Shown here in pieces: positions 2,217 through 44,620 of a stretch of 64,000 nt of DNA. The DNA comes from Candidatus Moraniibacteriota bacterium (GTDB lineage Bacteria; Patescibacteriota; Minisyncoccia; Moranbacterales; UBA2206), in the NCBI GenBank assembly GCA_049303795.1, contig JBAQNM010000004.1:8623-72622 (forward strand), written 5' to 3'. Each line of letters opens with the position of its first letter. The first letter of the stretch is position 1. The notes below the pieces were generated by a model. The model saw only the letters and a list, made by a program, of their open reading frames with translations, was not told the origin of the DNA and did no database searches. The translations under genes and the position numbers were made by a program.

Positions 2217-3230
2217 ATGAATTCTAGCATAAAAAACATTTTAGTAACTGGCAGTTCCGGCATGATTGGAACAGCGCTCGTGCAAGCACTTCAAAAAAAG
2301 GGCTATGGTGTCTATGGTTTTGATATAAAAGAACCAGCTATTTATAGTGATTTCAAATATAAAGTTGTTGACCTTACTAAACCTGTAGAGGAATCTTTTG
2401 GTGTAAATATAGATTTGGTCATTCATCTTGCTGCCCACGCCAGAGTATATGAACTTGTTATTGATCCAGCAAAAGCACTTGAAAATGCGACTATGGTTCA
2501 TAATATCTTTGAATGGTGCCGAAAAAATGAAGTTAAAAGATTTTTATTTGCTTCATCAAGAGAAACATATGGAGATCAAACAGAATTGCCCGTCAAGGAA
2601 AGTGTTGCCAATCAACGTTTTTCAAAAAGCAACTACACGGCTGGAAAGATTTTTGGCGAAGCTTATTGCTATTCATATAGCCATTGTTACAATATGCAAT
2701 GCAAAATAATGCGTCTTTCTAATGTTTATGGAAAATATGATTTCTCTGATAGATTTATTCCAAAAATAATTAACCAATTTATCAACGATCAAGATGTCAC
2801 TATATATGGAGAAAACAAAACCCTAGATTTCACCTATCTTGATGATTGTGTTAATGGAATTTGCCTACTTATAAATAAATATGATGTATCTGCTTTTTTA
2901 GAATACAATATTGCTTCAGGCACACAATCCAGCTTAATTGATGTCGCTCAAAAAATAAAAGACCTACTCGATTCAAAAGCAGAAATTAAAGTTGGTGAAA
3001 ATCTCACTGGTGAGGTTTTTAATTATCAAGCGGATATTTCTCGCATGAAAAACATAGGCTATGCACCAAAAATATCAGTTGAAGATGGAATAGAAAAATC
3101 GCTTGGCTATTATAGTGAATATTTCGCACCAAAAAAGAGCCTTGCCTCTCTTGCTATTGAACAATTAAAAATAGAATCGGAAAAATTAGGAACAGAATTT
3201 TCAGAATCGCTTTGTCCGGCTTTGGATTAA
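2217..3230 (+). CDS. NAD-dependent epimerase/dehydratase (SDR family, UDP-sugar epimerase-like)
   Basis: N-terminal Rossmann motif GSSGMIGTALV. Catalytic YxxxK (YTAGK). 337 aa. Confidence 0.85.
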   Translation: MNSSIKNILVTGSSGMIGTALVQALQKKGYGVYGFDIKEPAIYSDFKYKVVDLTKPVEESFGVNIDLVIHLAAHARVYELVIDPAKALENATMVHNIFEWCRKNEVKRFLFASSRETYGDQTELPVKESVANQRFSKSNYTAGKIFGEAYCYSYSHCYNMQCKIMRLSNVYGKYDFSDRFIPKIINQFINDQDVTIYGENKTLDFTYLDDCVNGICLLINKYDVSAFLEYNIASGTQSSLIDVAQKIKDLLDSKAEIKVGENLTGEVFNYQADISRMKNIGYAPKISVEDGIEKSLGYYSEYFAPKKSLASLAIEQLKIESEKLGTEFSESLCPALD

Positions 3231-3260
3231 TTTTTGAAAATGATAGTATTTTAGAAACAA

Positions 3261-3292
3261 AAAAACAGCGGTCAGATGACTGTTGTTTTTTT
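3261..3292 (+). terminator. rho-independent terminator
   Basis: Stem cagcggtca / tgactgttg (with G-U wobbles), loop gat, followed by a T7 run. Sits just after the epimerase stop. Confidence 0.6.
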
Positions 3293-3340
3293 GTTTAATT
3301 ATTAATCCCTTTCTTAATGTGGAAAAATGTGAAAAAAAAC

Positions 3341-3370
3341 TTGACAAAATACAGATAATCGTATTATTAT
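3341..3370 (+). promoter_or_regulatory. candidate promoter (TTGACA ... TATTAT)
   Basis: TTGACA at 3341-3346 and an AT-rich -10 (TATTAT/ATTATT) 15-18 nt downstream. Spacer length is ambiguous. Confidence 0.3.
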
Positions 3371-3521
3371 TTAATGTTATTTTATCGGCCATTTTATGGA
3401 TCGATTTATAACGGTTCATTTACAAATTATAGAATAAAAAGACTCAGAAAGGAGGGTTCTAGCTCAAAATTTTAGAGTGTCTGAAAACACAATTTTAACT
3501 TAATGAATCAGGAGGAAAAAG

Positions 3522-4253
3522 ATGGACAAAGACGATCCACGCTTTAAAAAATGGGAGACTATTTTCAAATGGGGCCTTGGATTTGGCGGTGCAATTGCCA
3601 TTTCCCAGGTAGCACTGTTGGCCATTCAAGGAATTCTTGGTCTGGTTGTAGCTATTGGTCTTGGAGAGACCATTATACAACTTGCGCCTGTTTTTTCCTT
3701 AAAATTGGCCAATTGGAAAATCAAACTTCTGACCGCTGAGGTTGAAGCCAATCCGATTGAGACATTAATCGGGTTGAAAATTGAAAAGGACCGTGAGTAT
3801 GGGCAAGCCGGTCAAGATATTGTCGCCTTTGAAACGGAAGTAAGAAACTTCCATGATGAGGTTGCAACGTTTGAGGGGCAGTTTCCCGAAGAAGCAGCTG
3901 CTTATAGAGACATCTACAAAAAAATGAGTAGTGGACTCGATGACATGAAAAAGCGCCAAGCTGAAGCTGCAACGAAACTTGATGCATTAAGCAAGACTAT
4001 CGAAAAAGCAAAGGCCATATACAAAATGTCCTTAGCGGCTGAACGAGTGACGCAACTTTCCAAGCCGGCAGAAGCAATCGTGTTTGCCGACATCAAGGAA
4101 AGGATTGCTTTTGACACAGTAAGGACGCAGTTAAATCATTCATTCGCGTCGCTAAACAATGCCGTTAACCTTCGACGAGAGATTCGCCCAAAAGCTTTTC
4201 CTCTCGGAGGAGAAAAAACCGCAGGACTTATCGAATCAAAGGAGGCCGTATGA
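3522..4253 (+). CDS. Hypothetical membrane-anchored coiled-coil protein
   Basis: AGGAGG Shine-Dalgarno 7 nt upstream. N-terminal hydrophobic segments (GLGFGGAIAISQVALLAIQGILGLVVAIGLG) followed by a charged, alanine-rich helical region. Noticeably higher GC than neighbouring genes. Confidence 0.6.
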   Translation: MDKDDPRFKKWETIFKWGLGFGGAIAISQVALLAIQGILGLVVAIGLGETIIQLAPVFSLKLANWKIKLLTAEVEANPIETLIGLKIEKDREYGQAGQDIVAFETEVRNFHDEVATFEGQFPEEAAAYRDIYKKMSSGLDDMKKRQAEAATKLDALSKTIEKAKAIYKMSLAAERVTQLSKPAEAIVFADIKERIAFDTVRTQLNHSFASLNNAVNLRREIRPKAFPLGGEKTAGLIESKEAV

Positions 4254-4399
4254 AATTCAGAATTATAGCATCAATTTTACTCATTGCTGCAACCTTAACC
4301 GGCTACTGGCTTTTTTACAGCAGTGATCAGACAACTGACAAGCCGGAAACGCAACAAATCGAAGAAACCACCCACAAATCACCTTTCATAACGAACTAA
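4250..4399 (+). CDS. Small membrane protein (49 aa), translationally coupled
   Basis: The ATG overlaps the upstream TGA stop (ATGA). MKFRIIASILLIAATLTGYWLFYSSDQTTDKPETQQIEETTHKSPFITN has one TM helix. Absent from the ORF track because it is under 60 aa. Confidence 0.4.
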   Translation: MKFRIIASILLIAATLTGYWLFYSSDQTTDKPETQQIEETTHKSPFITN

Positions 4400-4414
4400 A
4401 AAAAGGAGCAACTC

Positions 4415-5497
4415 ATGAAAAAAATGAATCGTTTGTTTTGGGCTATCGCATGTGTTTTTGGAATATTTTTTTCAAGCCCGGTATTTTCTGAGGAAGGCAA
4501 GGCTCCGGCCTCCTGCCCCAAAGAAAAAATCGCTGTGGCAACAGGAATTTCAACCGGAACATATTCAAAAATGTTTCAATCAGTCGCCAATCTGCCGGAA
4601 CTGAGCGACATCGTTTGTGAATACACGCAAACAAGTGGCGGCTATGACAACGTCCTGCTCTTGATGGATCGAAAGGTTGATGCAGGCATCGTTCAGGCCG
4701 ATGTGTTCGACTTCCTGAACAAAACCAATCCGGATATCAGGAAGAACTTAAGAAGCCTTTTTGCCATGCATGGAAGCTCCATGCACATCTTTGTTCTGAA
4801 AAATGGAACGGAGTGTAAAACGGTGACTCCTGGAAAAATTCGAATGCTGGATAAAACCGTAACATCGATTGTAAAAATCGAAAACCTTCGAGATCTCAAG
4901 GGTCTCAAAGTCGCCGCGCTCAGCAGTGCAGTTGTTACGGGAACTGAGGTGAGCGATCTGTTAAAGCTCAATCTCGACATTGTCGAGACAACAAAAGATG
5001 GTGGCTTTGAAAAGCTGAAAAATGGCGAGGTATATGCATTCCTGGCCATGGGCGGCAAGCCGATCGATTGGATTGATAAGGTTGATGCGAACATTTTCAC
5101 ATTAGCCAATGTCGATTCGACAGACATTCAAGCCCTGGGGTCTCCCTTCTACAATACCAAATTGCAGTATAAAAAATTCGGCGCTATCGGCACCAACGCC
5201 ATAACGGCGAGAAACGACTTTGTCGTCTGGGATTATAAAGGGAAAAAATCCGCCCTGCTTTCAAAAATTTATGATACTGTTTTTGAAAATCTGGCGGACG
5301 TCAAAGAGGACATGAGTTCTCATCCATGCTGGCAGGAAATAACCGAGGAAAATATTACCGACGTTTTCTGGCAGAAATATGAGCCGCCGGCCACCAATAA
5401 GTCAAAGCGGGAAAAGGTTGAATCAGAATCGACTTCTGAGCAACCATCCTCAGAAATGGTTATCACTCCTGCTGTAAAAAAACACCGCGGAAAATAA
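4415..5497 (+). CDS. Secreted periplasmic solute-binding protein, TAXI/PhnD-like fold (orphan; no permease nearby)
   Basis: AAGGAG Shine-Dalgarno 7 nt upstream. Signal peptide MKKMNRLFWAIACVFGIFFSSPVFSEEG. The motif KIAVATGISTGTYSKMF...TSGGYDNVLLLMDRKVDAGIVQADV resembles TAXI-family TRAP solute receptors. Confidence 0.5.
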   Translation: MKKMNRLFWAIACVFGIFFSSPVFSEEGKAPASCPKEKIAVATGISTGTYSKMFQSVANLPELSDIVCEYTQTSGGYDNVLLLMDRKVDAGIVQADVFDFLNKTNPDIRKNLRSLFAMHGSSMHIFVLKNGTECKTVTPGKIRMLDKTVTSIVKIENLRDLKGLKVAALSSAVVTGTEVSDLLKLNLDIVETTKDGGFEKLKNGEVYAFLAMGGKPIDWIDKVDANIFTLANVDSTDIQALGSPFYNTKLQYKKFGAIGTNAITARNDFVVWDYKGKKSALLSKIYDTVFENLADVKEDMSSHPCWQEITEENITDVFWQKYEPPATNKSKREKVESESTSEQPSSEMVITPAVKKHRGK

Positions 5498-5873: not shown

Positions 5874-6629
5874 TTATTTTACTGGCTTCCCTATATCCCA
5901 TAACGCCTTATAAAAAATTCGCATGGTATCGGCATATGATTTGCTTTCAATAACAAAGCTGTAATTTTCTTCTAATGGAGCAAATGAAGCAACGACATCA
6001 TCATAAATTAAAAGTGAATTATTTAGTTTCATGCCTAGTGGCAATTCTCGTGCTTCGCGATTTGTAGGTTTCAGTGTTTCCGTCGCAAAATAGCGATGCG
6101 TGCTTTTTTGTCCATGATTTCTCAGAACTTTACTTTTGATGCCTCTCCTTCCTGCTTTTTCAATATACTGCTCAATAAACTGTTTGCCTAAAATATCCGT
6201 GGCAGCTTTATGAGCAATTGTCCAAAAGACTTCTTTTCCCCTAGCTTCCAATGCATTTAGCCAGATTCTTTTCATGCCCTCCTTACCGCGATAATATTTG
6301 AAATTAGTGGAAAACTTTTCTGCTTCAAATATTTTTTTAAGCTGTGGTAATGATTCATTTAATGCATCCTGGTTTCTTTTTTGTATTTCCCCTAAAACAT
6401 CCGGGCTCTCAGCGATATAAATTATTTTTTTACCTTTTTGCGTCTGACTTACTAACCCCAACTGAATTAACTTCTCTAAAAAATTATACACTGTCGTTCT
6501 TTTCACCTTGGCTTTGCTGGAAATTTCTTGCACCGACCCACTGCCTAATTCCAAACAAGCTAAATAAATTTTAGCTTCCTTGTCAGAAAAACCCAAATTT
6601 TTTACAAAAACGACAGCACTCTGATCCAT
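5874..6629 (-). CDS. TrmB-family HTH transcriptional regulator
   Basis: N-terminal winged-helix LGFSDKEAKIYLACLELGSGSVQEISSKAKVKRTTVYNFLEKLIQLGLV. A paralog lies at 42636-43439. Confidence 0.7.
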   Translation of the reverse strand: MDQSAVVFVKNLGFSDKEAKIYLACLELGSGSVQEISSKAKVKRTTVYNFLEKLIQLGLVSQTQKGKKIIYIAESPDVLGEIQKRNQDALNESLPQLKKIFEAEKFSTNFKYYRGKEGMKRIWLNALEARGKEVFWTIAHKAATDILGKQFIEQYIEKAGRRGIKSKVLRNHGQKSTHRYFATETLKPTNREARELPLGMKLNNSLLIYDDVVASFAPLEENYSFVIESKSYADTMRIFYKALWDIGKPVK

Positions 6630-6762
6630 AAAATAATCTATTTAATTTTGTCTATATTATAGACAAATAGTATTGAATTTGTCAAGTTTCCTGCTATACT
6701 AAACAACCATTGCAACATCGTTGTTAGTGGCAAGTTCGTTAAAATCTAAATGGAGGTTATTT

Positions 6763-7695
6763 ATGAATGATAAAAATAAAAGATTTATTTACACTCGAGG
6801 ATTTCTTCTCCCAGATGATCAGAGCACAATTATGAGCGAATCATCACTTTCTCCAGATTTTATTGCTAAATATCGTGAGGGAAAATTTAATCAATCTACT
6901 AATGATATTCCCTTTAATGTCGGCGATATTTTTAACGAAACAAAAAAGATTCTCAAAGAAATTCATGGCAAACCGCTTACCGTAGATCCGATTCCTGCAG
7001 TTTTCACTGGCGATAATTTTATTATGGCAAGAAAGCTGTTTGATCTTCGTCCTGCGTTTTCACCTGGTGCTGAAATACTAAAAGAGATTTGCGAAAATAA
7101 ATGGGCAGAAAATGGCAAAAATCGGTGGCGAACATACTGCGAACACTTGGAAGAAGATGAAAAAGAAGAAATGATTCATGATAATTTTGTCAGAAAAGTC
7201 ATTTTTTCAAATTGGCCACGCGGGTGGTATCTTTATGATGCCACTGATTTAAGAAAAGAGCGTGCTATTCTTTCTGACAAAGAACATCCTACTCACGACA
7301 AACTCGCACCTCTCATCGCAGAATTAAGAAGAACAAAAGAGGTTGGCGGATACGACAACACTCCGCCAAGCACGCGCAAATCTCTTTTTATAAACGCTGA
7401 ATGGCCAAAAGTCTTAGCCGGACAAGAGGCAATTTTGCCGTTCCTAAAAACTGGAGTGGGATCCATCCTTTCCTATTCCGCATTCTATATGATAGGGCAT
7501 ATGTACGACAAAAATTTGTTACATACATATGCAACTACTTACTTTGCTGAAATTACACGAGGACTTTTTGGTATCTGGCGACGCTCATCAATCGCTCCGT
7601 GTAAGTATCATCGCATGGAGATTAGGCAATCGGCGACAGATTCTCTTCGTCCAGTAGGAATATGTCGCACATTTTGGGGTTGGAGGACGTTGTAA
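6763..7695 (+). CDS. Hypothetical protein (310 aa, no recognisable domain)
   Basis: Start chosen at ATG 6763 with a GGAGG Shine-Dalgarno 6 nt upstream; the track's TTG at 6721 is in frame. No motifs recognised. Confidence 0.6.
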   Translation: MNDKNKRFIYTRGFLLPDDQSTIMSESSLSPDFIAKYREGKFNQSTNDIPFNVGDIFNETKKILKEIHGKPLTVDPIPAVFTGDNFIMARKLFDLRPAFSPGAEILKEICENKWAENGKNRWRTYCEHLEEDEKEEMIHDNFVRKVIFSNWPRGWYLYDATDLRKERAILSDKEHPTHDKLAPLIAELRRTKEVGGYDNTPPSTRKSLFINAEWPKVLAGQEAILPFLKTGVGSILSYSAFYMIGHMYDKNLLHTYATTYFAEITRGLFGIWRRSSIAPCKYHRMEIRQSATDSLRPVGICRTFWGWRTL

Positions 7696-10773: not shown

Positions 10774-12927
<2,154 letters not shown>

Positions 12928-12937
12928 TCAATAACGC

Positions 12938-14710
12938 TTAACAACAATAGCGACTATCCCCACCACTACAACCAGAGGTGCAACTTCCACAAACAGAGCC
13001 AGGACATAACATCAATCCACAAGTTGTAGGACTATAGCAATTACCACAAGTCGGTGTACACTTACCAAAAGTAGAGCAACTATTTTGAATACAACAAGTT
13101 TCAGATGCATTCGGATGATAACCAGCACTACAAATCACCTTGCAACTTTTTGTTAAGGTATAATTGCAATCCGTCGCTCCTTTAGTACATGTTGTTCCGC
13201 TTACATTCCAACCACTCATTCCTGTTGTAAGGGCTCCGCAATATTTTATTGAATCAGTTATTATAGGAGAAGGACAGGGACGAGAACAACAACGAGATTT
13301 TGTTAAGACATTGCCTGGGGTTGGAATCCTTGGTGGTAATGTTGGAGGATAGAGAGGATTTGGTATTTCACCACCATTCATATCAACATCAATATCATGA
13401 GTTAAAGTCCAAACAGAACTGTTAATACCTTGGTCTTTATCAACATCGTTAGGAGGGCAACCTGTGCAATAACCAACTGTACGACGTGGCTTTGTGCAAC
13501 TAGCTCCAGACAAACAATTTACAGCTTTACCAACACCACAAAAACCGACTCCTCCATTGACACCATCACCTGAGTTATTTCCTGAAGGATATTCTTCAAC
13601 CTTACTAATAACAGAGCCTCTATAGTTATCACCATCAAGATATCCGTGATAATTACCTGTGCATGTTTGCAAACAACAAGTCTTTGCAGCATTAGATACC
13701 CATTCTGGACCCATACAAGACAAACAATGAGAACCATTGCAACAATTATGTGTCCCTCCATATGCGCCAGCCCCGTCAACGCTTCCAAAAATACAGCCAA
13801 GTCCAGACAAGGAGCTTCCTCCAGTACAGTCCGCACTGCCCTCTATTTGAATTGCATCATTAGGATCATAATGATAGAGTGAATCCAATTTAAAGGGGGT
13901 GCTGTTTCTTGCTTTGATAGCAAAAAAGTATTTTTCATTATACTGGCCACCAGTTGTTGCAGTTCCAGGCAATTCAGGATCACCACTTTCAATCAAACGA
14001 GTTTGATTTCTAGTGAAAAAAGAATTGACTGGTGCAGTTCTTTGCAATACTCTTATCCAACCATATTCTCCCGCATTAGCTCCATTTTCCAAAGATCCAG
14101 TGTCATTGTTTCCTGATGACATTCTAACTTCATAATTTACCACTCCGCCGGGAACAGTAGCCTGATTATCATTCACCCTAACAAGCATCTCGCATCTATT
14201 CCACGAGCAACTACCACCACCACCGCATTTCGTAACTGTCAAGCTACCATTAGTGAGCATTCCATCGACTCTATCTGAAACCGGGGCATAGACTGATCGA
14301 GTAACACCTTGATCCGTCACATCAGACTGAGAATTGAAAATGGTTGTTACTTTGTCTGTGCCAGCTGGAGCGGTTGTCCCATCACCTTTAAAACATTGGA
14401 CTCCCGAGCAAAAGCTAGTGGCAAGAGTATTTTCAGGAATTTGATTGTCTGCATAACCGGCATCAGTCCCACTGTCCAATTCATTCAATTTACTCAAAAA
14501 ACCTTCCACAGTTTGATCTGACTGTTGGTATGTAGTATAGCCTTTTTTGGAATCAGTAGTGAGTTGAATACCTTGTAAGGTTCGACTTATAATTGCCAGG
14601 GCAATCGCCGAAATCATTAAAAAAACAATCATAACACCAATAAGCAGTGAGCCCTTCCCTCTAATAAATAGTCCTTTTCTGGATTTTTTTTTGTTTATCT
14701 TTTTATTCAT
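12938..14710 (-). CDS. Large cysteine-rich surface protein with a PilX_N-like N-terminal anchor (candidate pilus-tip/adhesin protein)
   Basis: N-terminus KGLFIRGKGSLLIGVMIVFLMISAIALAI resembles PilX/pseudopilin anchors. 590 aa with about 40 Cys concentrated in the C-terminal half. Last gene of the pil operon. Confidence 0.65.
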   Translation of the reverse strand: MNKKINKKKSRKGLFIRGKGSLLIGVMIVFLMISAIALAIISRTLQGIQLTTDSKKGYTTYQQSDQTVEGFLSKLNELDSGTDAGYADNQIPENTLATSFCSGVQCFKGDGTTAPAGTDKVTTIFNSQSDVTDQGVTRSVYAPVSDRVDGMLTNGSLTVTKCGGGGSCSWNRCEMLVRVNDNQATVPGGVVNYEVRMSSGNNDTGSLENGANAGEYGWIRVLQRTAPVNSFFTRNQTRLIESGDPELPGTATTGGQYNEKYFFAIKARNSTPFKLDSLYHYDPNDAIQIEGSADCTGGSSLSGLGCIFGSVDGAGAYGGTHNCCNGSHCLSCMGPEWVSNAAKTCCLQTCTGNYHGYLDGDNYRGSVISKVEEYPSGNNSGDGVNGGVGFCGVGKAVNCLSGASCTKPRRTVGYCTGCPPNDVDKDQGINSSVWTLTHDIDVDMNGGEIPNPLYPPTLPPRIPTPGNVLTKSRCCSRPCPSPIITDSIKYCGALTTGMSGWNVSGTTCTKGATDCNYTLTKSCKVICSAGYHPNASETCCIQNSCSTFGKCTPTCGNCYSPTTCGLMLCPGSVCGSCTSGCSGGDSRYCC

Positions 14711-37446: not shown

Positions 37447-38460
37447 CTACCAACCCTCAACATTAAAATCAATTGGCTGAATAGTGAAAGCTGCTCCCGA
37501 CATAATAAATTCACTTTTAATTTTATCAGCTTTAGTTCTTAGAGAAGAAAATTCGTCATGCATCTGGGAAAAATAATCCGCCACTATTCCATTCGCTTTT
37601 TCTGTGGCATTAGCAACTGCTTCCCAATTTTTAACATCCGGGGATATTTCTTTTAGTTTTTTCAAATCTTCTTTTTCTAGAGCATTAATAAGCTCTCCAT
37701 ATTGTTCAGATTTAATCTTCAACTCATCGATAGGTTTTTTATAGTCAGCCAAACCATCAGGAGTTTCAAGCGTGTTATAGAGAGCTATTTCTTTATCAAG
37801 AGTATCCTTTAGAGCTTTAAAATAACCAATCAACCCCTCAAGACTCTCAGGTACAGTCTTAAATTTATTACTAAAAGCTTCGTCTTCCTTAATAAGCGCT
37901 ACAGTTATTTTTGCGTCATCAAGAATAAATTTTGTATAAGTATCATATTTTCTTGTTATTTTTTCCGCATCAGTGAAATAACTCTTAACTAAATAATTTA
38001 GAGCATCAACTTTTGCATTACTCTTTATCTGTGATGCGTCTTGCTGCATTTTAGAGATATTAACAGCCACTTCTCCTGATTTTGTTTTTTCCACATTGAA
38101 CTTTTCCACCACTAAATCTTTATTTTCTTCACTGTCGTATTTTTTAATAAGATCTGTTTCTGTTGAAAGTCCATTAATTGCATTGACGGAATCACTAAAT
38201 ATTCTTCGCTCATCCTGAATATATATTTTCGCCTGCTTTTCTTCCGCTTTTTTATTCCAATATGCATAGCCAGCAAAAGCGCCGCCGCCGATCAAAATCA
38301 AAAGGATGCAACCAATAATTATTTTCCATAAAATACCTCCTTTATTTTTAAGTACTTTATCATGAGAATACCCACACTTTTTGCAGAAAGAATTCTGCGT
38401 TGAGTTCAGTTCGCCACAACTTGGACATTGCCACGTTTGATCATCCATTTTTTCATTCAT
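37447..38460 (-). CDS. Zinc-ribbon / single-pass membrane protein with an extracytoplasmic helical domain
   Basis: N-terminal WQCPSCG...CKKCG zinc ribbon, then a TM helix (ILWKIIIGCILLILIGGGAFAGYAYW), then a K/E-rich helical region. Confidence 0.6.
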   Translation of the reverse strand: MNEKMDDQTWQCPSCGELNSTQNSFCKKCGYSHDKVLKNKGGILWKIIIGCILLILIGGGAFAGYAYWNKKAEEKQAKIYIQDERRIFSDSVNAINGLSTETDLIKKYDSEENKDLVVEKFNVEKTKSGEVAVNISKMQQDASQIKSNAKVDALNYLVKSYFTDAEKITRKYDTYTKFILDDAKITVALIKEDEAFSNKFKTVPESLEGLIGYFKALKDTLDKEIALYNTLETPDGLADYKKPIDELKIKSEQYGELINALEKEDLKKLKEISPDVKNWEAVANATEKANGIVADYFSQMHDEFSSLRTKADKIKSEFIMSGAAFTIQPIDFNVEGW

Positions 38461-38485
38461 TTTTTTGTTTTTATTTATTATTAAA

Positions 38486-39682
38486 TTATTTTTTATTTAT
38501 TATAGGCAGAATTCCTTCCGATCTAGCACCAGTAACTCGAACTAAATTATAGGCGACTGGTGTTTTTTTATCCTGGATTAATTTCCAATTCTTAGTTGCG
38601 ATTTCAACAGCCTTTATCGGAGAGCCACTAAGGGCAGTAGATTCGATGAAAATAAATTTATCGCTATTATATCCCAACTCAATCCCAGGCCAAACATGAT
38701 TATCTGTAAAAACTAGCACCGGATCAAAACCAAGATTCTCAAGCGCTGCTGTCATGAGTAGTGATAGGTCTATGCAAATACCACTTTTTGTAGAAATGAC
38801 CTGAGCAGGATCTCTTAGCTTTTGCATTTCTAATCCGTTATAGCTAAATGGTGATGCAATATATCGTATCTCATAATCAACACTCATCGCCTTAAAAATA
38901 GCTTCCACTTGAGCTTTTGCACCTTTTTCATCGCCAGCCATATATCCAAGCATTGCGTCTTTGGGACCACCAAATTCAGCTACATATTTCGCTGCAGCAT
39001 GGACAAGCTCAACAACAGATGGATCATCCTTATCAACTAATTTCAACACGTTTTGGGTATTATTCTTGCCATTTTTTTTCCAAATTATTTCATGAATTGA
39101 ATTGAAAAAAATATCACTTTCATTGCTAAGCAAAACTTTTTCACCAGTGGAATTTATTTGAAAAACTACTATTTTTAGCTTAGTCGATTGGGCTGCCTGA
39201 CTCAATTTTCCATATCCAGCATTCGAAAAAGAAGCACCCAGATCAAGCTGTTTAGTTTCCGGTTGAATGGAAACAGTTTCAATTTTTTTATCAGTAATAC
39301 CCTCTGCTTCCAATTCTATTCTCAATTGGGTATTTTGTTGACTGGAAACTCTTAGCGTACCTAGAATATTTTTATCATCTGCAATAAGAGGCATTGTTTT
39401 ATTTACAGGACTCCATTCTAAACCGACAGCTGATTGCTGATTAATGAATGCGTCTAATTCATTTTGCTTTCTTTCAATTTCTCTATTGCTACGATAAAAA
39501 CTCCAGCTGATAATTATTGCCGATACTATTAAAATAAAAAGAACGATGGAAATATTTCTTTTTGATTTAAAGAAAAAAATAATTCTATTTGTGAACTTCT
39601 CATCTTGAAGTCCGCTTCCGCAGGATGGACAATGTTTCCATTGAAAAATATCAACTTCCTTGCCACATTGATTACAGTTCAT
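38486..39682 (-). CDS. Zinc-ribbon membrane protein with a C-terminal transglutaminase-like cysteine-protease domain
   Basis: N-terminal CNQCG...CPSCG zinc ribbon and a TM helix. C-terminal SGICIDLSLLMTAALENLGF...NHVW matches a transglutaminase-like Cys/His core. Confidence 0.65.
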   Translation of the reverse strand: MNCNQCGKEVDIFQWKHCPSCGSGLQDEKFTNRIIFFFKSKRNISIVLFILIVSAIIISWSFYRSNREIERKQNELDAFINQQSAVGLEWSPVNKTMPLIADDKNILGTLRVSSQQNTQLRIELEAEGITDKKIETVSIQPETKQLDLGASFSNAGYGKLSQAAQSTKLKIVVFQINSTGEKVLLSNESDIFFNSIHEIIWKKNGKNNTQNVLKLVDKDDPSVVELVHAAAKYVAEFGGPKDAMLGYMAGDEKGAKAQVEAIFKAMSVDYEIRYIASPFSYNGLEMQKLRDPAQVISTKSGICIDLSLLMTAALENLGFDPVLVFTDNHVWPGIELGYNSDKFIFIESTALSGSPIKAVEIATKNWKLIQDKKTPVAYNLVRVTGARSEGILPIINKK

Positions 39683-40178: not shown

Positions 40179-40250
40179 GGCCTCATCGTCTATCGGTTAG
40201 GACATCAGGTTTTCATCCTGAAAAGAGGGGTCCGACTCCCCTTGAGGCTA
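40179..40250 (+). tRNA. tRNA-Glu (TTC)
   Basis: GGCCTCATCGTCTATCGGTTAGGACATCAGGTTTTCATCCTGA..AGGGGTCCGACTCCCCT TGAGGCTA. Confidence 0.8.
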
Positions 40251-40365
40251 CGATTTCGAGACTTTCCGAAATTGTTGCGGTTTTTTCTCTTTTTATGCTT
40301 TTGGCCGTCCTTGACCCAAACCACCCATTCGCGGACGGCAATAAGGAACTCCCAAGGCAACTTAC

Positions 40366-41535
40366 CTATATTTTTTTGAAAGCTTGTTCAAAATCTTTAA
40401 TAACATCGTCTATATTTTCAAACCCAACGGAATATCTCAACAAATTTCCTTTAATATCTCGCTTGTCTGCCTCAATCCTGTTTTTATAAAAAGTAAGTAT
40501 GGCATGTTGTTCTATTAAACTTTGTGACCCGCCAAAATTAGTTGCGATATATGGAATTTTTAGCGCATCTATAAACTTGCTAGTATTTTTCTCAGATGCT
40601 TTCAACGAAAAAGTTATCACTCCTCCATAGCCACTCATTTGCTTTTTGGCTAAAATAAAGTCTGGATGCGATTTCAGACCAGGATACCAAACTTTTTCAA
40701 TTTTTGGATTATTTTCAAGATATCGAGCTATTGTTAAGCCGTTTTTATTATGTACTTCCATTCTTATAGCTAATGTTTGCAAGCTTCTTAGCAAAAGATA
40801 CGAAGTGTGGGGGTCAATTATTCCTCCAAATATATCCCGATAGTGCTGAATTTTTTCAATGAGCTTAGATCTTCCAGCTATAACTCCTGCAAATAAATCA
40901 TGATGTCCTCCTAGATATTTTGTGGCACTATGCAAAACTATGTCCGCGCCAAATTCAATAGGACGCAAATTCATAGGCGTAGCGAAAGTTGAATCTACTA
41001 TTGTGATTATTCCTCGCTTTTTTGCAAAGGTAGTTAGGAGTTTTAAATCAATGATTCTCAGAAATGGATTTGTCGGAATTTCCGAAAAAAACAAAATGGT
41101 ATTCTTCTTGATATACTTTTTAATATTTGCAAAATCATTAATGGGTATTTGAGTAGCTTCTATTGAAAATTTGGGAAGAATCTTATCGAAAAATTTTTTT
41201 GTATTTCGGTAGCAATCATCAGTATATAAAATATGTTGGTTTTTATTAACCAAAGATAAGATGGTCGTTGTTATCGCGCTCATACCAGAAGAAAAAAGCA
41301 ATGCTCTGTCAGCATTTTCCAGTTCTGCAATTTTTTCCTCAACGGCACTTTGAGTAGGACAACCATATCTTCCATATTTTATGCCCTTGATTTTGCCTTG
41401 ATAAAAATCTTTTATTTGCTTGGTATTTTCAAAATAATAAGCCGCCGTTTGTTCCAGTGGAATCGTAACGGATCTATTTTGTCTTTTTCTATCCCTTTCG
41501 CCACTATGAACGGCTTTTGATTCTATTTTTTTCAT
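40366..41535 (-). CDS. Cys/Met-metabolism PLP-dependent enzyme (cystathionine gamma-synthase / beta-lyase / methionine gamma-lyase family)
   Basis: PLP-lysine region DIVLHSATKYLGGHHDLFAGVI. 389 aa. Confidence 0.85.
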   Translation of the reverse strand: MKKIESKAVHSGERDRKRQNRSVTIPLEQTAAYYFENTKQIKDFYQGKIKGIKYGRYGCPTQSAVEEKIAELENADRALLFSSGMSAITTTILSLVNKNQHILYTDDCYRNTKKFFDKILPKFSIEATQIPINDFANIKKYIKKNTILFFSEIPTNPFLRIIDLKLLTTFAKKRGIITIVDSTFATPMNLRPIEFGADIVLHSATKYLGGHHDLFAGVIAGRSKLIEKIQHYRDIFGGIIDPHTSYLLLRSLQTLAIRMEVHNKNGLTIARYLENNPKIEKVWYPGLKSHPDFILAKKQMSGYGGVITFSLKASEKNTSKFIDALKIPYIATNFGGSQSLIEQHAILTFYKNRIEADKRDIKGNLLRYSVGFENIDDVIKDFEQAFKKI

Positions 41536-42505
41536 TTTGTTCTTCAGTAAATCTTATAAATTCATGATATTTTGGGTGTCGTAAAATACACCTTGAAAAC
41601 CCATATTTTTTATAGAAATCATTAACTGATTTTAAAACTTTTTTTCCAATTCCCTCTATGCTATTAAAAATATCGCCATATAAATTTTGAGTTTCTAGCG
41701 CATAAGCGCAAGTCAAAATTTTTCCATCTGAGCCGATGCTTATGCCGTTTTTCATATAAGAACATTCGCGTCCTTCCACTAATGTGCCTAGTGGATAACT
41801 CACATCTTTATCAATGATTATATTTTTAACCTTGTTATATTTTTTATTATTCTTAGAGGCTGAGCCGATATCAATCGGTTTATTGACGACAAACACAATG
41901 TCGTCGCCACAAAATTTTTTTATTTTTTCTATCTGTTTATAGTTTTCATTATTTAAAACAAGATTAATAGCTAGGGAGACAACAGTTGATTTATGATAAG
42001 AATAAATATTATTGGTATAAATTTTTCTGATCACTTTTATATTTTTAATTAAATTTTTGTAAGCGCCTTTCTTATTAACATAGTGATTATATTTTTCTTC
42101 TTCGAAAGAATCCATATTTATAATCAGACTGGCATTATTTTGCGCAAGAAATTTGGCAAGTTTTTCATTTATTACACTGCCATTAGTAAAAATGTAGGGT
42201 ATCAGTTTATTTTTATTAGCAAATTTTACAATCGCACGAAAATTTTTATTAATGACTGGCTCACCCTCGCCAGCAATTACTAAAACTTTTGCGCCGACTT
42301 TTTGTAACCTTAAAATAGATTCTTTAATTTTAGTAAGTGATAAGTTGCCGAGGTTATATTCCCTAAAACGATTACAGCACTTAAGACACTGATAATTACA
42401 CTCAAACGGCAGGTTGAGCATAATATAGTCAATCTCACTTTTTATAAATTTGCTGCCTGCCAGATGTAAATATTGAGCAGAGCCCCTTAAAATTAATTTT
42501 TGCAT
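41504..42505 (-). CDS. Radical SAM enzyme
   Basis: CNYQCLKC (CX3CX2C) cluster near the N-terminus and extra C-terminal Cys residues. Its 3' end overlaps the PLP enzyme gene by 32 nt. Confidence 0.8.
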   Translation of the reverse strand: MQKLILRGSAQYLHLAGSKFIKSEIDYIMLNLPFECNYQCLKCCNRFREYNLGNLSLTKIKESILRLQKVGAKVLVIAGEGEPVINKNFRAIVKFANKNKLIPYIFTNGSVINEKLAKFLAQNNASLIINMDSFEEEKYNHYVNKKGAYKNLIKNIKVIRKIYTNNIYSYHKSTVVSLAINLVLNNENYKQIEKIKKFCGDDIVFVVNKPIDIGSASKNNKKYNKVKNIIIDKDVSYPLGTLVEGRECSYMKNGISIGSDGKILTCAYALETQNLYGDIFNSIEGIGKKVLKSVNDFYKKYGFSRCILRHPKYHEFIRFTEEQNEKNRIKSRS

Positions 42506-42635
42506 ATTTGTAATTTGATAATATTTTTAACTTGACCTTGACAATGTAGTATAGATGAGTATAATAAAATTGTAAATCTGTCGTCGCTAACCGACAAATA
42601 AATACATTTTCTGCTAATTATTACTTTTTGAAAAT

Positions 42636-43439
42636 ATGCTTGATAAAATTCTTGAGGAAATCGGACTTTCCGAAAACTCCATACGAATTTATATGCGACT
42701 CTTGGAAGGCTCATCATTTTCGGCCAGACAACTTGCTGAAAATCTCAATATTCCTCGCCCATCCGTTTATGACAATCTAAAAATCCTTATGAATAAAGGG
42801 TTGGTTGTTGAACATGACAAAGAAAATAAAAAAATATTTACGGCTGATGATGTTAAAAATTTACCGCAATTAATAAAATCTAAAAGAGAAACGCTAGAAG
42901 AATTTGAAACTGAAATCAAGAAAATACTTCCATTACTTACTAAACAGACCAAAAATATTGAACCAAAAATCAAATTTTATTCAGGTGCAGAGGGAATCAG
43001 GCAAGTCTTAAGAGATATGCTATGGTATGAAAACATCGAAACACTCACCATGTGGCCAATCAGCGAAATGGTTGAAGTTTTGGGCAAGGATTATTTGGCC
43101 GATCTAAACCGCAGGAGGATAAGACGAAATATATCCATCAAGGGCATCTGGCCTGAAGATAAGGCGGTAAAATTAAAGGAGCACCCGTTTTTGGGTGTAG
43201 GCAAAAAACATCTACGAGAATTGCGACTAGCTCCAAAAAATATGATTTGGAATATGAGCTACTGGTTGTATGATGACAAAGTTGCTTTTATTTCCTCAAG
43301 ACAAGAAGGCTTTGGATTTGTTATTCATAGCAAAGATTTTTCTGAACTTATCAGAACTCAATTTGAAGTCATTTGGAAGATTTCTAAAACTATAAAGCCA
43401 CAGTCAAAATACACGGATAAATTTCTTGAAACAATATAA
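42636..43439 (+). CDS. TrmB-family HTH transcriptional regulator
   Basis: N-terminal winged-helix LSENSIRIYMRLLEGSSFSARQLAENLNIPRPSVYDNLKILMNKGLV. Divergent from the radical-SAM/PLP pair. Confidence 0.7.
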   Translation: MLDKILEEIGLSENSIRIYMRLLEGSSFSARQLAENLNIPRPSVYDNLKILMNKGLVVEHDKENKKIFTADDVKNLPQLIKSKRETLEEFETEIKKILPLLTKQTKNIEPKIKFYSGAEGIRQVLRDMLWYENIETLTMWPISEMVEVLGKDYLADLNRRRIRRNISIKGIWPEDKAVKLKEHPFLGVGKKHLRELRLAPKNMIWNMSYWLYDDKVAFISSRQEGFGFVIHSKDFSELIRTQFEVIWKISKTIKPQSKYTDKFLETI

Positions 43440-43549
43440 ATAAAAAAAATAATTTTGGAGCATTGCAAATTATTTAAAGTGTTTTATTATCTTTTGCAAT
43501 TATTGATCATTTCCTCTAGAATTGACATATAATTTTTGAAAATCTTATT

Positions 43550-44620
43550 ATGTTAGTTTTAGGCATTGAAACATCTTGCGATGAAACAGCTGCTGCAATA
43601 ATCGAAACAAAAAAAGACAAAATGACTCTTTTGTCGAATATTGTTTCGTCTCAAATAGAGCTACATGCAAAATGGGGTGGAGTTGTGCCAAATTTAGCAG
43701 CGCGTGAACACTTAAAAAATATTCTTCCTGTGATCAATGAAACGCTTGAAAAGGCACAAAAAAAACCAGCAGAAATTGACCTTATCGCGATAACAAATGG
43801 ACCAGGATTAATTCCTGCGCTTTTGATTGGCACGACAACTGCTAAAACAATCAGCTATCTCTGGCAAAAACCACTGATTGGCATCCATCATATTGAAGGT
43901 CATATTTATGCTAATTTCATAAATAACAATACTGCCAAAGATGTAAAGTTTCCCGTTCTATGCTTAGTTGTTTCCGGCGGACACACTCAGCTAGTTTTAA
44001 TGAAAAAGCATTTGACTTATGAAATTATTGGTCAAACCTTAGATGATGCCGTTGGAGAGGCATTTGATAAGGTGGCACGTATTTTAGGCTTAGGATATCC
44101 AGGTGGACCGCTTGTTTCCAAGATTGCTGATGAGTATGGGTTGAAAAAAAGTAAGTTCAAAATTAAACTTCCTCGTCCTATGCTTAGATCTGCCAATTTT
44201 GATTTTTCGTTTTCTGGCATCAAAACTGCAGTACTTTATACAGTTAAAAAAAATCAGAAAAAATTAAACAACCCTGATTTTATTGCTGAAATGTGTCTAG
44301 AATTTCAAACTGCTGTCTGTGAAGTTCTAATCCACAAAACAATTAACGCAGCAAAAAAATACAAACCAAAAACAATCATGCTGGCTGGCGGTGTGAGCGC
44401 CAATAGCTACCTAAGAAAAAATTTAGCTATTGCCGTTGAAAAAGATTTAAATAATGTTTTCTATGCTATTCCTGATCGAGCTTATAGTATCGATAATGCT
44501 GCTATGATCGCCATAGCTGGATATTATCGTTGGAACAAAATGCATATTAAAAATAAAAAGAATCTATCAGCTAACTGGATTAGTCTTGAAGCTAATGCTA
44601 ATTTAAAATTAAAAAACTAA
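43550..44620 (+). CDS. tsaD: tRNA N6-adenosine threonylcarbamoyltransferase
   Basis: MLVLGIETSCDETAAAI Kae1/TsaD N-terminus with HxxH-type metal site. Confidence 0.9.
   Translation: MLVLGIETSCDETAAAIIETKKDKMTLLSNIVSSQIELHAKWGGVVPNLAAREHLKNILPVINETLEKAQKKPAEIDLIAITNGPGLIPALLIGTTTAKTISYLWQKPLIGIHHIEGHIYANFINNNTAKDVKFPVLCLVVSGGHTQLVLMKKHLTYEIIGQTLDDAVGEAFDKVARILGLGYPGGPLVSKIADEYGLKKSKFKIKLPRPMLRSANFDFSFSGIKTAVLYTVKKNQKKLNNPDFIAEMCLEFQTAVCEVLIHKTINAAKKYKPKTIMLAGGVSANSYLRKNLAIAVEKDLNNVFYAIPDRAYSIDNAAMIAIAGYYRWNKMHIKNKKNLSANWISLEANANLKLKN

Follow-up and report, generated by a model that had tools for sequence, protein, structure and literature searches.

The window analysed here, a 64-kb stretch (64,000 nt) of contig JBAQNM010000004.1 from Candidatus Moraniibacteriota, carries a three-gene cassette in which a dedicated TrmB-family regulator gene is transcribed divergently from an operon of two enzyme genes. 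The first encodes a radical S-adenosylmethionine (SAM) enzyme of a novel family, the second a pyridoxal 5'-phosphate (PLP) enzyme that is a diverged relative of plant cystathionine gamma-synthase (CGS), and a conserved palindrome lies between the divergent promoters. The arrangement is not due to chance, as the same gene order is found in many independent contigs of candidate phyla radiation (CPR) bacteria and DPANN archaea. We believe, with moderate confidence, that the cassette is a regulated, self-contained and laterally transferable unit of these two groups which acts on a free amino acid in two successive steps, most probably as part of the chemistry of sulfur amino acids.

Both groups are ultra-small organisms that are believed to be nearly devoid of biosynthetic capacity and to have few regulators, so a regulated cassette common to both, across the domain boundary, is likely to be important for their lifestyle. 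New enzymology is likely as well, since the radical SAM family has no name yet and the active-site changes in the PLP enzyme are fixed. The superfamilies involved were known already, as was the logic of an oxidant acting together with a gamma-family PLP enzyme; what is new is the radical SAM family itself, the PLP clade, their link to the regulator, the alternation of the radical SAM enzyme with a diiron oxidase, and the CPR–DPANN distribution. Literature searches for a radical SAM/PLP pairing in these organisms returned nothing relevant. The operator palindrome and its regulator offer a small, testable regulatory system from organisms that cannot be cultured alone, and the diiron-oxidase version of the cassette provides an aerobic way to test the same pathway in E. 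coli.

Gene arrangement, regulator and candidate operator

All three genes had been called in a first-pass annotation made from the letters of the window, and the calls hold. The radical SAM protein matches PF04055 (Radical_SAM; 50.4 bits against a gathering threshold of 29.5, 3.7e-13) and has both the CX3CX2C motif and the extra cysteines ascribed to it; the PLP enzyme matches PF01053 (Cys_Met_Meta_PP) over its full length (416 bits against a cut-off of 27, 1.4e-124), with the PLP lysine, K206, in HSATKYLGGHHD; and the regulator matches PF01978 (TrmB; 53 bits against 25.6, 3e-14). The regulator gene lies 130 nt from the radical SAM gene (intergenic region 42506–42635), as described, and the reported coding overlap of the two enzyme genes stood up when the letters were read: the ATG of the PLP gene lies inside the final codons of the radical SAM gene, which stops at TAG 41506–41504. 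The overlap makes translational coupling of the two genes probable. In relatives the junction takes the form of 4-nt overlaps, gaps of ~10–50 nt or, once, an in-frame fusion. The GC content of the cassette is the same as that of its surroundings.

The neighbourhood census combined tblastn with all-against-all clustering of 665 neighbouring open reading frames (ORFs) and covered 51 non-redundant loci of the radical SAM family, 29 of them with enough flank on both sides. The steadiest partner of the radical SAM gene in these 29 is the divergent TrmB gene (18–19 loci); the PLP gene is present in 11 (~40%), a sulfonate-type ABC transporter together with an unknown protein of 416 residues (c4) in three to four, and no recognisable partner in six (~20%). 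The view of the two enzymes as a pair therefore stands only in part: the pairing is conserved, but it is the regulator, not the PLP enzyme, that accompanies the radical SAM family most faithfully. Clustering of the 665 ORFs brought out no conserved neighbours beyond the regulator, the PLP enzyme, a PALP-family enzyme, CysH, the diiron oxidase, the ABC transporter with SsuA, and c4.

Taken from the side of the PLP enzyme, every readable locus of its clade (~17 distinct) adjoins a radical SAM gene or, in L076/77, a diiron oxidase gene, and a TrmB gene precedes these loci wherever the contig extends far enough upstream; the two outgroup relatives that were inspected have neither a radical SAM nor an oxidase gene nearby. 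The pairing also survives changes of gene order. Several subclades in the tree of radical SAM proteins have the radical SAM gene ahead of the PLP gene, the order is reversed in two loci (L046 and L066), and in one archaeal locus (L014 7935–10190; JAGVON010000041.1, archaeon DeMMO3_23) the two are fused into a single in-frame ORF of 751 residues, which in the related locus L012 is represented by two genes with a 4-nt overlap. A further locus (L039 1–4658) has two radical SAM paralogues, each beside a different PLP fold, around one TrmB gene: a PALP gene and the first paralogue, then TrmB, then the second paralogue and the PLP enzyme of the cassette type. In two loci (L079 5016–6004 and L085 2463–4004) an intact PLP gene is preceded by a radical SAM gene that is split up into two or three ORFs, the result either of gene decay or of assembly errors.

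The radical SAM family comprises 91 proteins in 5.8 billion, and is confined almost wholly to CPR bacteria and DPANN archaea; a protein from a metagenome-assembled genome in NCBI matches that of the window at 100% identity. A scan of 185,579 species genomes gave 15 loci, 14 of them with true members of the family, to which metagenomes added 47 loci. The 14 are labelled as Parcubacteria, Falkowbacteria and other Patescibacteria on the bacterial side and as Micrarchaeota, Aenigmatarchaeota, Iainarchaeum, Nanoarchaeota and unclassified archaea on the archaeal side; one (L010) is labelled Methanosarcinales and is possibly a mis-binned contig, and the fifteenth (L019, Acutalibacteraceae) is a weak partial match only. 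Between CPR and DPANN the PLP enzymes are 66–72% identical, the radical SAM enzymes only 38–44%.

In the regulator, a winged helix–turn–helix (HTH) at residues 6–70 is followed by a C-terminal domain of ~190 residues with no match in Pfam. Its orthologues are 59–93% identical in CPR bacteria and 23–39% in DPANN archaea, and most related loci have one placed upstream of the radical SAM gene in divergent orientation. The candidate operator of the window (Table 1) is found just downstream of the implied TrmB start site, a position that would suit autoregulation by TrmB, and directly adjoins the operon promoter at its −35 hexamer. A palindrome of 15–21 bp recurs ~30–40 nt from the TrmB start codon in every TrmB–radical SAM intergenic region. 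In all CPR relatives it occupies the same place with the form TTGTCG-N5-8-CGACAA, directly followed by a TTTACA or TTGACA hexamer, and in DPANN archaea it takes the forms GTGGTAG...CTACCAC, GTAGTA...TACTAC or GGTGTCATGATGACACC and comes directly after a TATA-like ATATAAAT. This pattern is the signature of a dedicated local regulator, with a candidate operator that appears to co-evolve with it, and the regulator probably senses the substrate or the product of the pathway. It resembles archaeal TrmB regulators in its N-terminal winged HTH, in the palindrome overlapping a promoter and in its orientation divergent from the target operon, but no sugar-binding C-terminal domain was detected, the targets are not sugar genes, and the form is frequent in CPR bacteria.

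Two other TrmB-like proteins were seen. The window itself has a second TrmB-like gene (5874–6629, minus strand), 27% identical over its full length to that of the cassette and divergent from a gene for 324 residues without a Pfam match (6721–7695, plus strand), and the TrmB type may be a general local regulator in the host genome. In a Micrarchaeota locus (L009 8978–10930, minus strand) a protein of 650 residues, built of repeated TrmB-like modules, is encoded directly downstream of the radical SAM gene and convergent with it.

Table 1. Features of the cassette and its immediate flanks (positions in the window)
Feature	Position	Strand	Description
PLP enzyme gene	40366–41535	−	389 residues; Cys/Met family, fold type I, gamma-family
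Radical SAM gene	41504–42505	−	333 residues; unnamed family, twitch-type auxiliary cluster motif
Radical SAM/PLP coding overlap	41504–41535	−	32 nt, read at nucleotide level
TrmB-family regulator gene	42636–43439	+	267 residues; divergent from radical SAM gene
Candidate palindromic operator	42579–42596		TGTCGTCGCTAACCGACA (TGTCG-N8-CGACA); sole match in the 64-kb window, 0.03 expected by chance
Promoter-like site, TrmB gene	42538–42565	+	TTGACA-16-TATAAT, 12/12
Promoter-like site, radical SAM/PLP operon	42548–42576	−	TTTACA-17-TATACT, 10/12
tRNA-Glu(UUC)	40179–40251	+	converges on the radical SAM/PLP operon
tsaD (tRNA t6A synthesis)	43550–44620	+	3' of TrmB gene; own 11/12 promoter-like site at 43522–43551

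The two enzymes and the diiron-oxidase version

The radical SAM enzyme was compared within its family in alignments of 24 (A1) and 58 sequences. Its CX3CX2C motif (C36/C40/C43) and GEGEP at 79–83, a SAM-binding motif of the GGE type, are invariant or nearly so (57–58 of 58). Of the further cysteines, C199 is present in 48 of 58, while C248-x12-G261-x4-C266 and C306, which together correspond to the twitch half of the SPASM motif, are kept in at least 85%. A private set of polar residues is conserved to the same degree (Y27, N31, Y38, K42, N45, D132, Y139, N155, N181, N188, N208, Y250, Y268 and R309), and the conserved residues are kept whatever the gene context. The C-terminal Cx9-15Gx4C with its further cysteine, together with fold similarity to twitch and SPASM proteins, places the enzyme in the twitch subclass. 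A full SPASM domain is absent, as only single cysteines follow C266 where CX2CX5CX3C was sought, and no SPASM family of Pfam was matched.

The housekeeping identities that would have made the gene unremarkable fall away, and in this the first-pass annotation was right. No NCBIfam model comes near its cut-off: the best is W_rSAM_matur (69 bits against 380), followed by NirJ, AhbC/D, HpnH, viperin and MoaA at 35–56 bits. MoaA reaches 35–39 against 231–325, and MiaB, RlmN and QueE are not among the best 25 of the 41 NCBIfam matches. Compared with the known twitch and SPASM enzymes (SkfB, anSME, MoaA, BtrN and BlsE, with AhbD and NirJ by hidden Markov model (HMM)), the enzyme of the window is 12–21% identical without approaching any cut-off, has neither a RiPP (ribosomally synthesized and post-translationally modified peptide) recognition element (RRE) domain nor a gene for a peptide substrate, and carries a conserved residue set of its own. 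Nor is it of the KamA type (lysine 2,3-aminomutase), in which radical SAM enzyme and PLP are brought together in the same polypeptide.

The PLP enzyme scores below every NCBIfam cut-off (359 bits against 550–600). We compared its clade, ~58 proteins at no less than 58% identity, with 51 outgroup "CGS" sequences. Next after the clade come generic "CGS" proteins of large genomes, 46–50% identical, which have no met or radical SAM genes nearby; the suggestion that the enzyme stands outside a canonical methionine context is thereby borne out. The PLP lysine K206, the stacking tyrosine Y109 and the carboxylate arginine R367 are kept in 57–58 of the 58 clade members, and five other residues, K53, C59, N111, N333 and Q338, are fixed in 52–58 of 58, where the outgroup has E, N, R/K, S and E, respectively. 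K53 is on the loop that bears the PLP-phosphate ligands Tyr and Arg of the neighbouring subunit; C59 (52 of 58) replaces an asparagine that in the outgroup belongs to a GNPT motif; and N111, two residues past the stacking tyrosine, takes the position of Cys116 in methionine gamma-lyase. Because the catalytic residues are kept and the substitutions are fixed across the clade, the enzyme is predicted to be active with a changed specificity.

Tobacco CGS (1QGN/1I41) is the best solved relative, at 361 bits end to end, with the next at 300 bits. The two share the motifs DCYR.T and YGRYG.PT, the PLP lysine and the carboxylate arginine, but the clade differs from tobacco CGS by E107 to K53, N to C59, K165 to N111, S388 to N333 and E393 to Q338, and by its constant linkage to a radical SAM enzyme or a diiron oxidase. 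An assignment as plant or O-phosphohomoserine-type CGS fails accordingly (NF006097, 358 against 600; K53, N111 and N333 in the clade), as does one as methionine gamma-lyase (TIGR01328, 358.8 against 549.7), whose YGC and KD motifs, the criteria for that enzyme (PMC11568061), are replaced by Y109-R-N111 and R233-D234. A conserved Cys-Pro-Thr is common to the PLP clade (GCPTQ, 58–62) and to the diiron oxidase family described below (CPTGYFD, 168–174, alignments A2/A3), possibly by coincidence.

In a second version of the cassette a diiron oxidase takes the place of the radical SAM enzyme. These cassettes are fronted by TrmB orthologues 62–74% identical to that of the window, share its TTGTCG...CGACGACA operator and TTTACA hexamer, and consist either of an oxidase–PLP pair (L076/77) or of the oxidase alone (L082, L083). 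The oxidase is heme-oxygenase-like, of the TenA/PqqC family, with a CADD-like set of metal ligands; CADD, HrmI and BesC are its closest structures, and its score against the BesC HMM is 31 against a cut-off of 500. Salvage of the thiamin pyrimidine by a TenA-like enzyme with a ThiY-like binding protein was considered and rejected, the oxidase being CADD-like in its ligands and closest to CADD, HrmI and BesC, and the binding protein being best described as SsuA-family. Oxidase and radical SAM genes adjoin in three loci, in the same direction and with TrmB in L010 and L030, and convergently in L036. From this context we infer that a single regulated pathway can use either enzyme or both, the O2-dependent oxidase substituting for the oxygen-sensitive radical SAM enzyme or accompanying it. 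With the same regulator and operator, and with either enzyme before the same PLP clade, the alternation follows the pattern in which non-orthologous enzymes displace one another according to oxygen regime, as in HemN/HemF, anSME/FGE and BchE/AcsF; in contrast to those pairs, the equivalence is drawn from context only, and three loci carry both enzymes. The substrate of the cassette is probably an amino acid, given that free amino acids are what HrmI and BesC oxidise. In L076 (4315–7170; CAZJKG010000003.1) the TrmB/oxidase/PLP cassette interrupts a conserved ribosomal protein operon, where it separates the L2 gene from the S19 gene; this indicates recent mobility.

Further genes in relatives suggest a link to sulfur. 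In L001 and L016 the radical SAM gene is separated from the PLP gene by a CysH gene (L001 CysH scores 191 against an NCBIfam cut-off of 154), and the contig of L032 ends within a CysH gene, of which it contains the first part, downstream of the radical SAM gene. Five loci (L039, L047, L050, L052 and L053) have a CysM-like PALP enzyme encoded ahead of a radical SAM paralogue, and an SsuA-type ABC transporter is found upstream in six (SsuA_fam, 119 bits). It is on account of these CysH, CysM-like and SsuA-type genes that the sulfur link is suggested; of the dedicated sulfur-amino-acid or SAM-salvage route put forward in the first-pass annotation, the sulfur part thus gains support, and SAM salvage has no evidence in its favour. 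The CPR loci L001/L002 also contain a three-gene cluster for a 2-oxoacid:ferredoxin oxidoreductase just past the TrmB gene (2329–5050) and an AMP-binding ligase of the acyl-CoA type ~2.5 kb downstream of the PLP gene (11326–12975), which could be linked to the use of 2-oxobutyrate or could be coincidental.

Proposed pathway and competing explanations

In the pathway that we propose, the radical SAM enzyme would carry out an oxygen-independent radical step, either the abstraction of a hydrogen atom that leads to oxidation or an oxidative decarboxylation or desaturation, and in some relatives the CADD/BesC-like diiron oxidase would take over this step in an O2-dependent manner. The PLP enzyme would catalyse a gamma-replacement or a gamma-elimination; its nucleophile would probably be anionic and not cysteine, as Lys53 of the clade occupies the place of a Glu that is conserved in the relatives of the enzyme. 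Two orders of these steps carry roughly equal weight. In version (a), the radical enzyme would produce an amino acid that is gamma-activated or beta,gamma-unsaturated, perhaps of the vinylglycine type, which the PLP enzyme would then capture with sulfur; vinylglycine is a known alternative electrophile of CGS (bioRxiv 10.1101/2023.09.06.556532). In version (b), the PLP enzyme would form an S-substituted or sulfonated amino acid that the radical enzyme converts, relatives without the PLP gene would import this substrate, and the PLP enzyme, the PALP enzyme, CysH and the ABC transporter would be alternative modules for its supply. Version (b) would give the better account of the accessory genes; version (a) would fit better with the alkene-forming precedents among these diiron oxidases and with similar amino acid chemistry nearby.

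A bolder form of the chemistry, which we consider distinctly unlikely, is a minimal two-enzyme shortcut that needs no oxygen: the twitch radical SAM enzyme (or, in oxic lineages, the diiron oxidase) would convert a common amino acid such as glutamate, by oxidative decarboxylation or desaturation, into an intermediate of the vinylglycine type, to which the CGS-like enzyme would add a sulfur nucleophile to give homocysteine or a related product. If such a shortcut were true, CPR bacteria and DPANN archaea, which are regarded as incapable of amino acid synthesis, would bypass the whole pathway from aspartate to homoserine and would have traded the cassette between them.

Several points weigh against the two-step amino acid pathway. 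Its function is deduced wholly from gene neighbourhood and family resemblance, and all sequences come from metagenome-assembled genomes (MAGs) or metagenomes. As ~60% of the radical SAM loci have no PLP gene and ~20% no partner at all, the radical SAM enzyme must have a role independent of the PLP enzyme. The fusion is one case in one MAG, where a sequencing error at a stop codon is possible. The product of CysH is sulfite, not sulfide, and no sulfite reductase was seen, which is a poor fit to version (a); version (b), for its part, leads to an end product without an obvious use. The roles assigned here to E107 and K165 of tobacco CGS are presumptive. Finally, most of the structures nearest to the radical SAM enzyme are those of peptide or protein maturases, and this favours the main rival.

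According to that rival, the radical SAM enzyme is a maturase that modifies a neighbouring protein, for example at Cys59 of the PLP enzyme, in the way that anSME converts cysteine to formylglycine or SkfB forms a thioether, and the oxidase is the O2-dependent alternative, as FGE is to anSME. The maturase-like fold is in keeping with this, as is the fact that Cys59 is specific to the clade and lies in the active-site loop. We nevertheless judge it unlikely: the radical SAM or oxidase gene often stands with the regulator only, the PLP gene being missing; more distant linked PLP enzymes can lack Cys59 (Phe in L066); the modified partners would need to span two unrelated PLP folds; and HrmI and BesC, two of the three structures closest to the oxidase, act on free amino acids.

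It is quite improbable, in our view, that the two enzymes assemble into a single complex whose 5'-deoxyadenosyl radical attacks a substrate bound to PLP, a chemistry known from lysine 2,3-aminomutase but here divided between two polypeptides, although the in-frame fusion of L014, the overlapping or abutting genes of most loci and the paralogue-specific pairing in L039 would all be explained by it. A similarly small probability goes to the production of a non-proteinogenic amino acid as a toxin, an antimetabolite or a signal directed at the host. The precedent here is the beta-ethynylserine (terminal-alkyne) pathway, where the diiron oxidase BesC is followed by the CGS-like PLP enzyme BesB; the oxidase–PLP pair of L076/77 mirrors these two enzymes, with BesC as a top structural match, and a dedicated regulator and a mobile cassette (the insertion into the ribosomal operon in L076, and PLP enzymes as similar across the domains as given above) would suit such a purpose. 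The cassette of the window differs from that pathway, however, in that a twitch radical SAM enzyme serves as its oxidant in place of a diiron oxidase, it has no halogenase, ligase or hydroxylase, and its hosts are CPR bacteria and DPANN archaea, not Streptomyces. A halogenase, ligase, exporter or immunity gene is not conserved nearby in the relatives, the oxidase misses the BesC model by a wide gap, and the accessory genes indicate sulfur assimilation instead.

That the PLP enzyme is an ordinary enzyme of transsulfuration or a methionine gamma-lyase, with the radical SAM gene adjacent by accident, is very improbable. The strong Pfam match and the 359 bits to the methionine gamma-lyase and CGS models of NCBIfam are what one would expect of such an enzyme, and a published survey has proposed a methioninase in a few Patescibacteria (PMC11568061). 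Yet every NCBIfam cut-off is missed, the YGC motif is absent, the specificity positions are altered throughout the clade, and the linkage to a radical SAM enzyme or oxidase is invariant, withstands rearrangement and includes a fusion; the neighbourhood census largely refutes this explanation. Least credible of all is a RiPP maturase (for a sactipeptide or ranthipeptide) or an antiviral enzyme of the viperin type, suggested by fold similarity to SkfB and CteB and by weak matches to pVip HMMs (52 bits): only ~35 residues precede CX3CX2C, leaving no room for an RRE domain, the proposed search for a precursor peptide in 42506–42635 and 40252–40365 gave only ORFs that are antisense or overlap the tRNA, no small ORF is conserved in either intergenic region or in the relatives and no transporter or protease nearby, while the auxiliary-cluster cysteines of the radical SAM enzyme are absent from viperins, the NCBIfam viperin score is 41.6 against 180, and the PADLOC match covers the core at residues 35–191 only.

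Flanking features of the window

The tRNA-Glu gene reported to follow the operon is indeed present, but it is irrelevant to the cassette: it lies on the opposite strand and therefore converges on the operon and is not co-transcribed with it, and it is missing at the equivalent position of related loci. On the other side, tsaD is not kept beside the cassette in other loci. An Rfam search for riboswitches and other RNA elements matched tRNA only. Further away, and unrelated to the cassette, two adjoining genes on the minus strand (37447–39682) encode proteins with an N-terminal zinc ribbon and a hydrophobic stretch resembling a membrane anchor, one of which also has a weak transglutaminase-like C-terminal domain.

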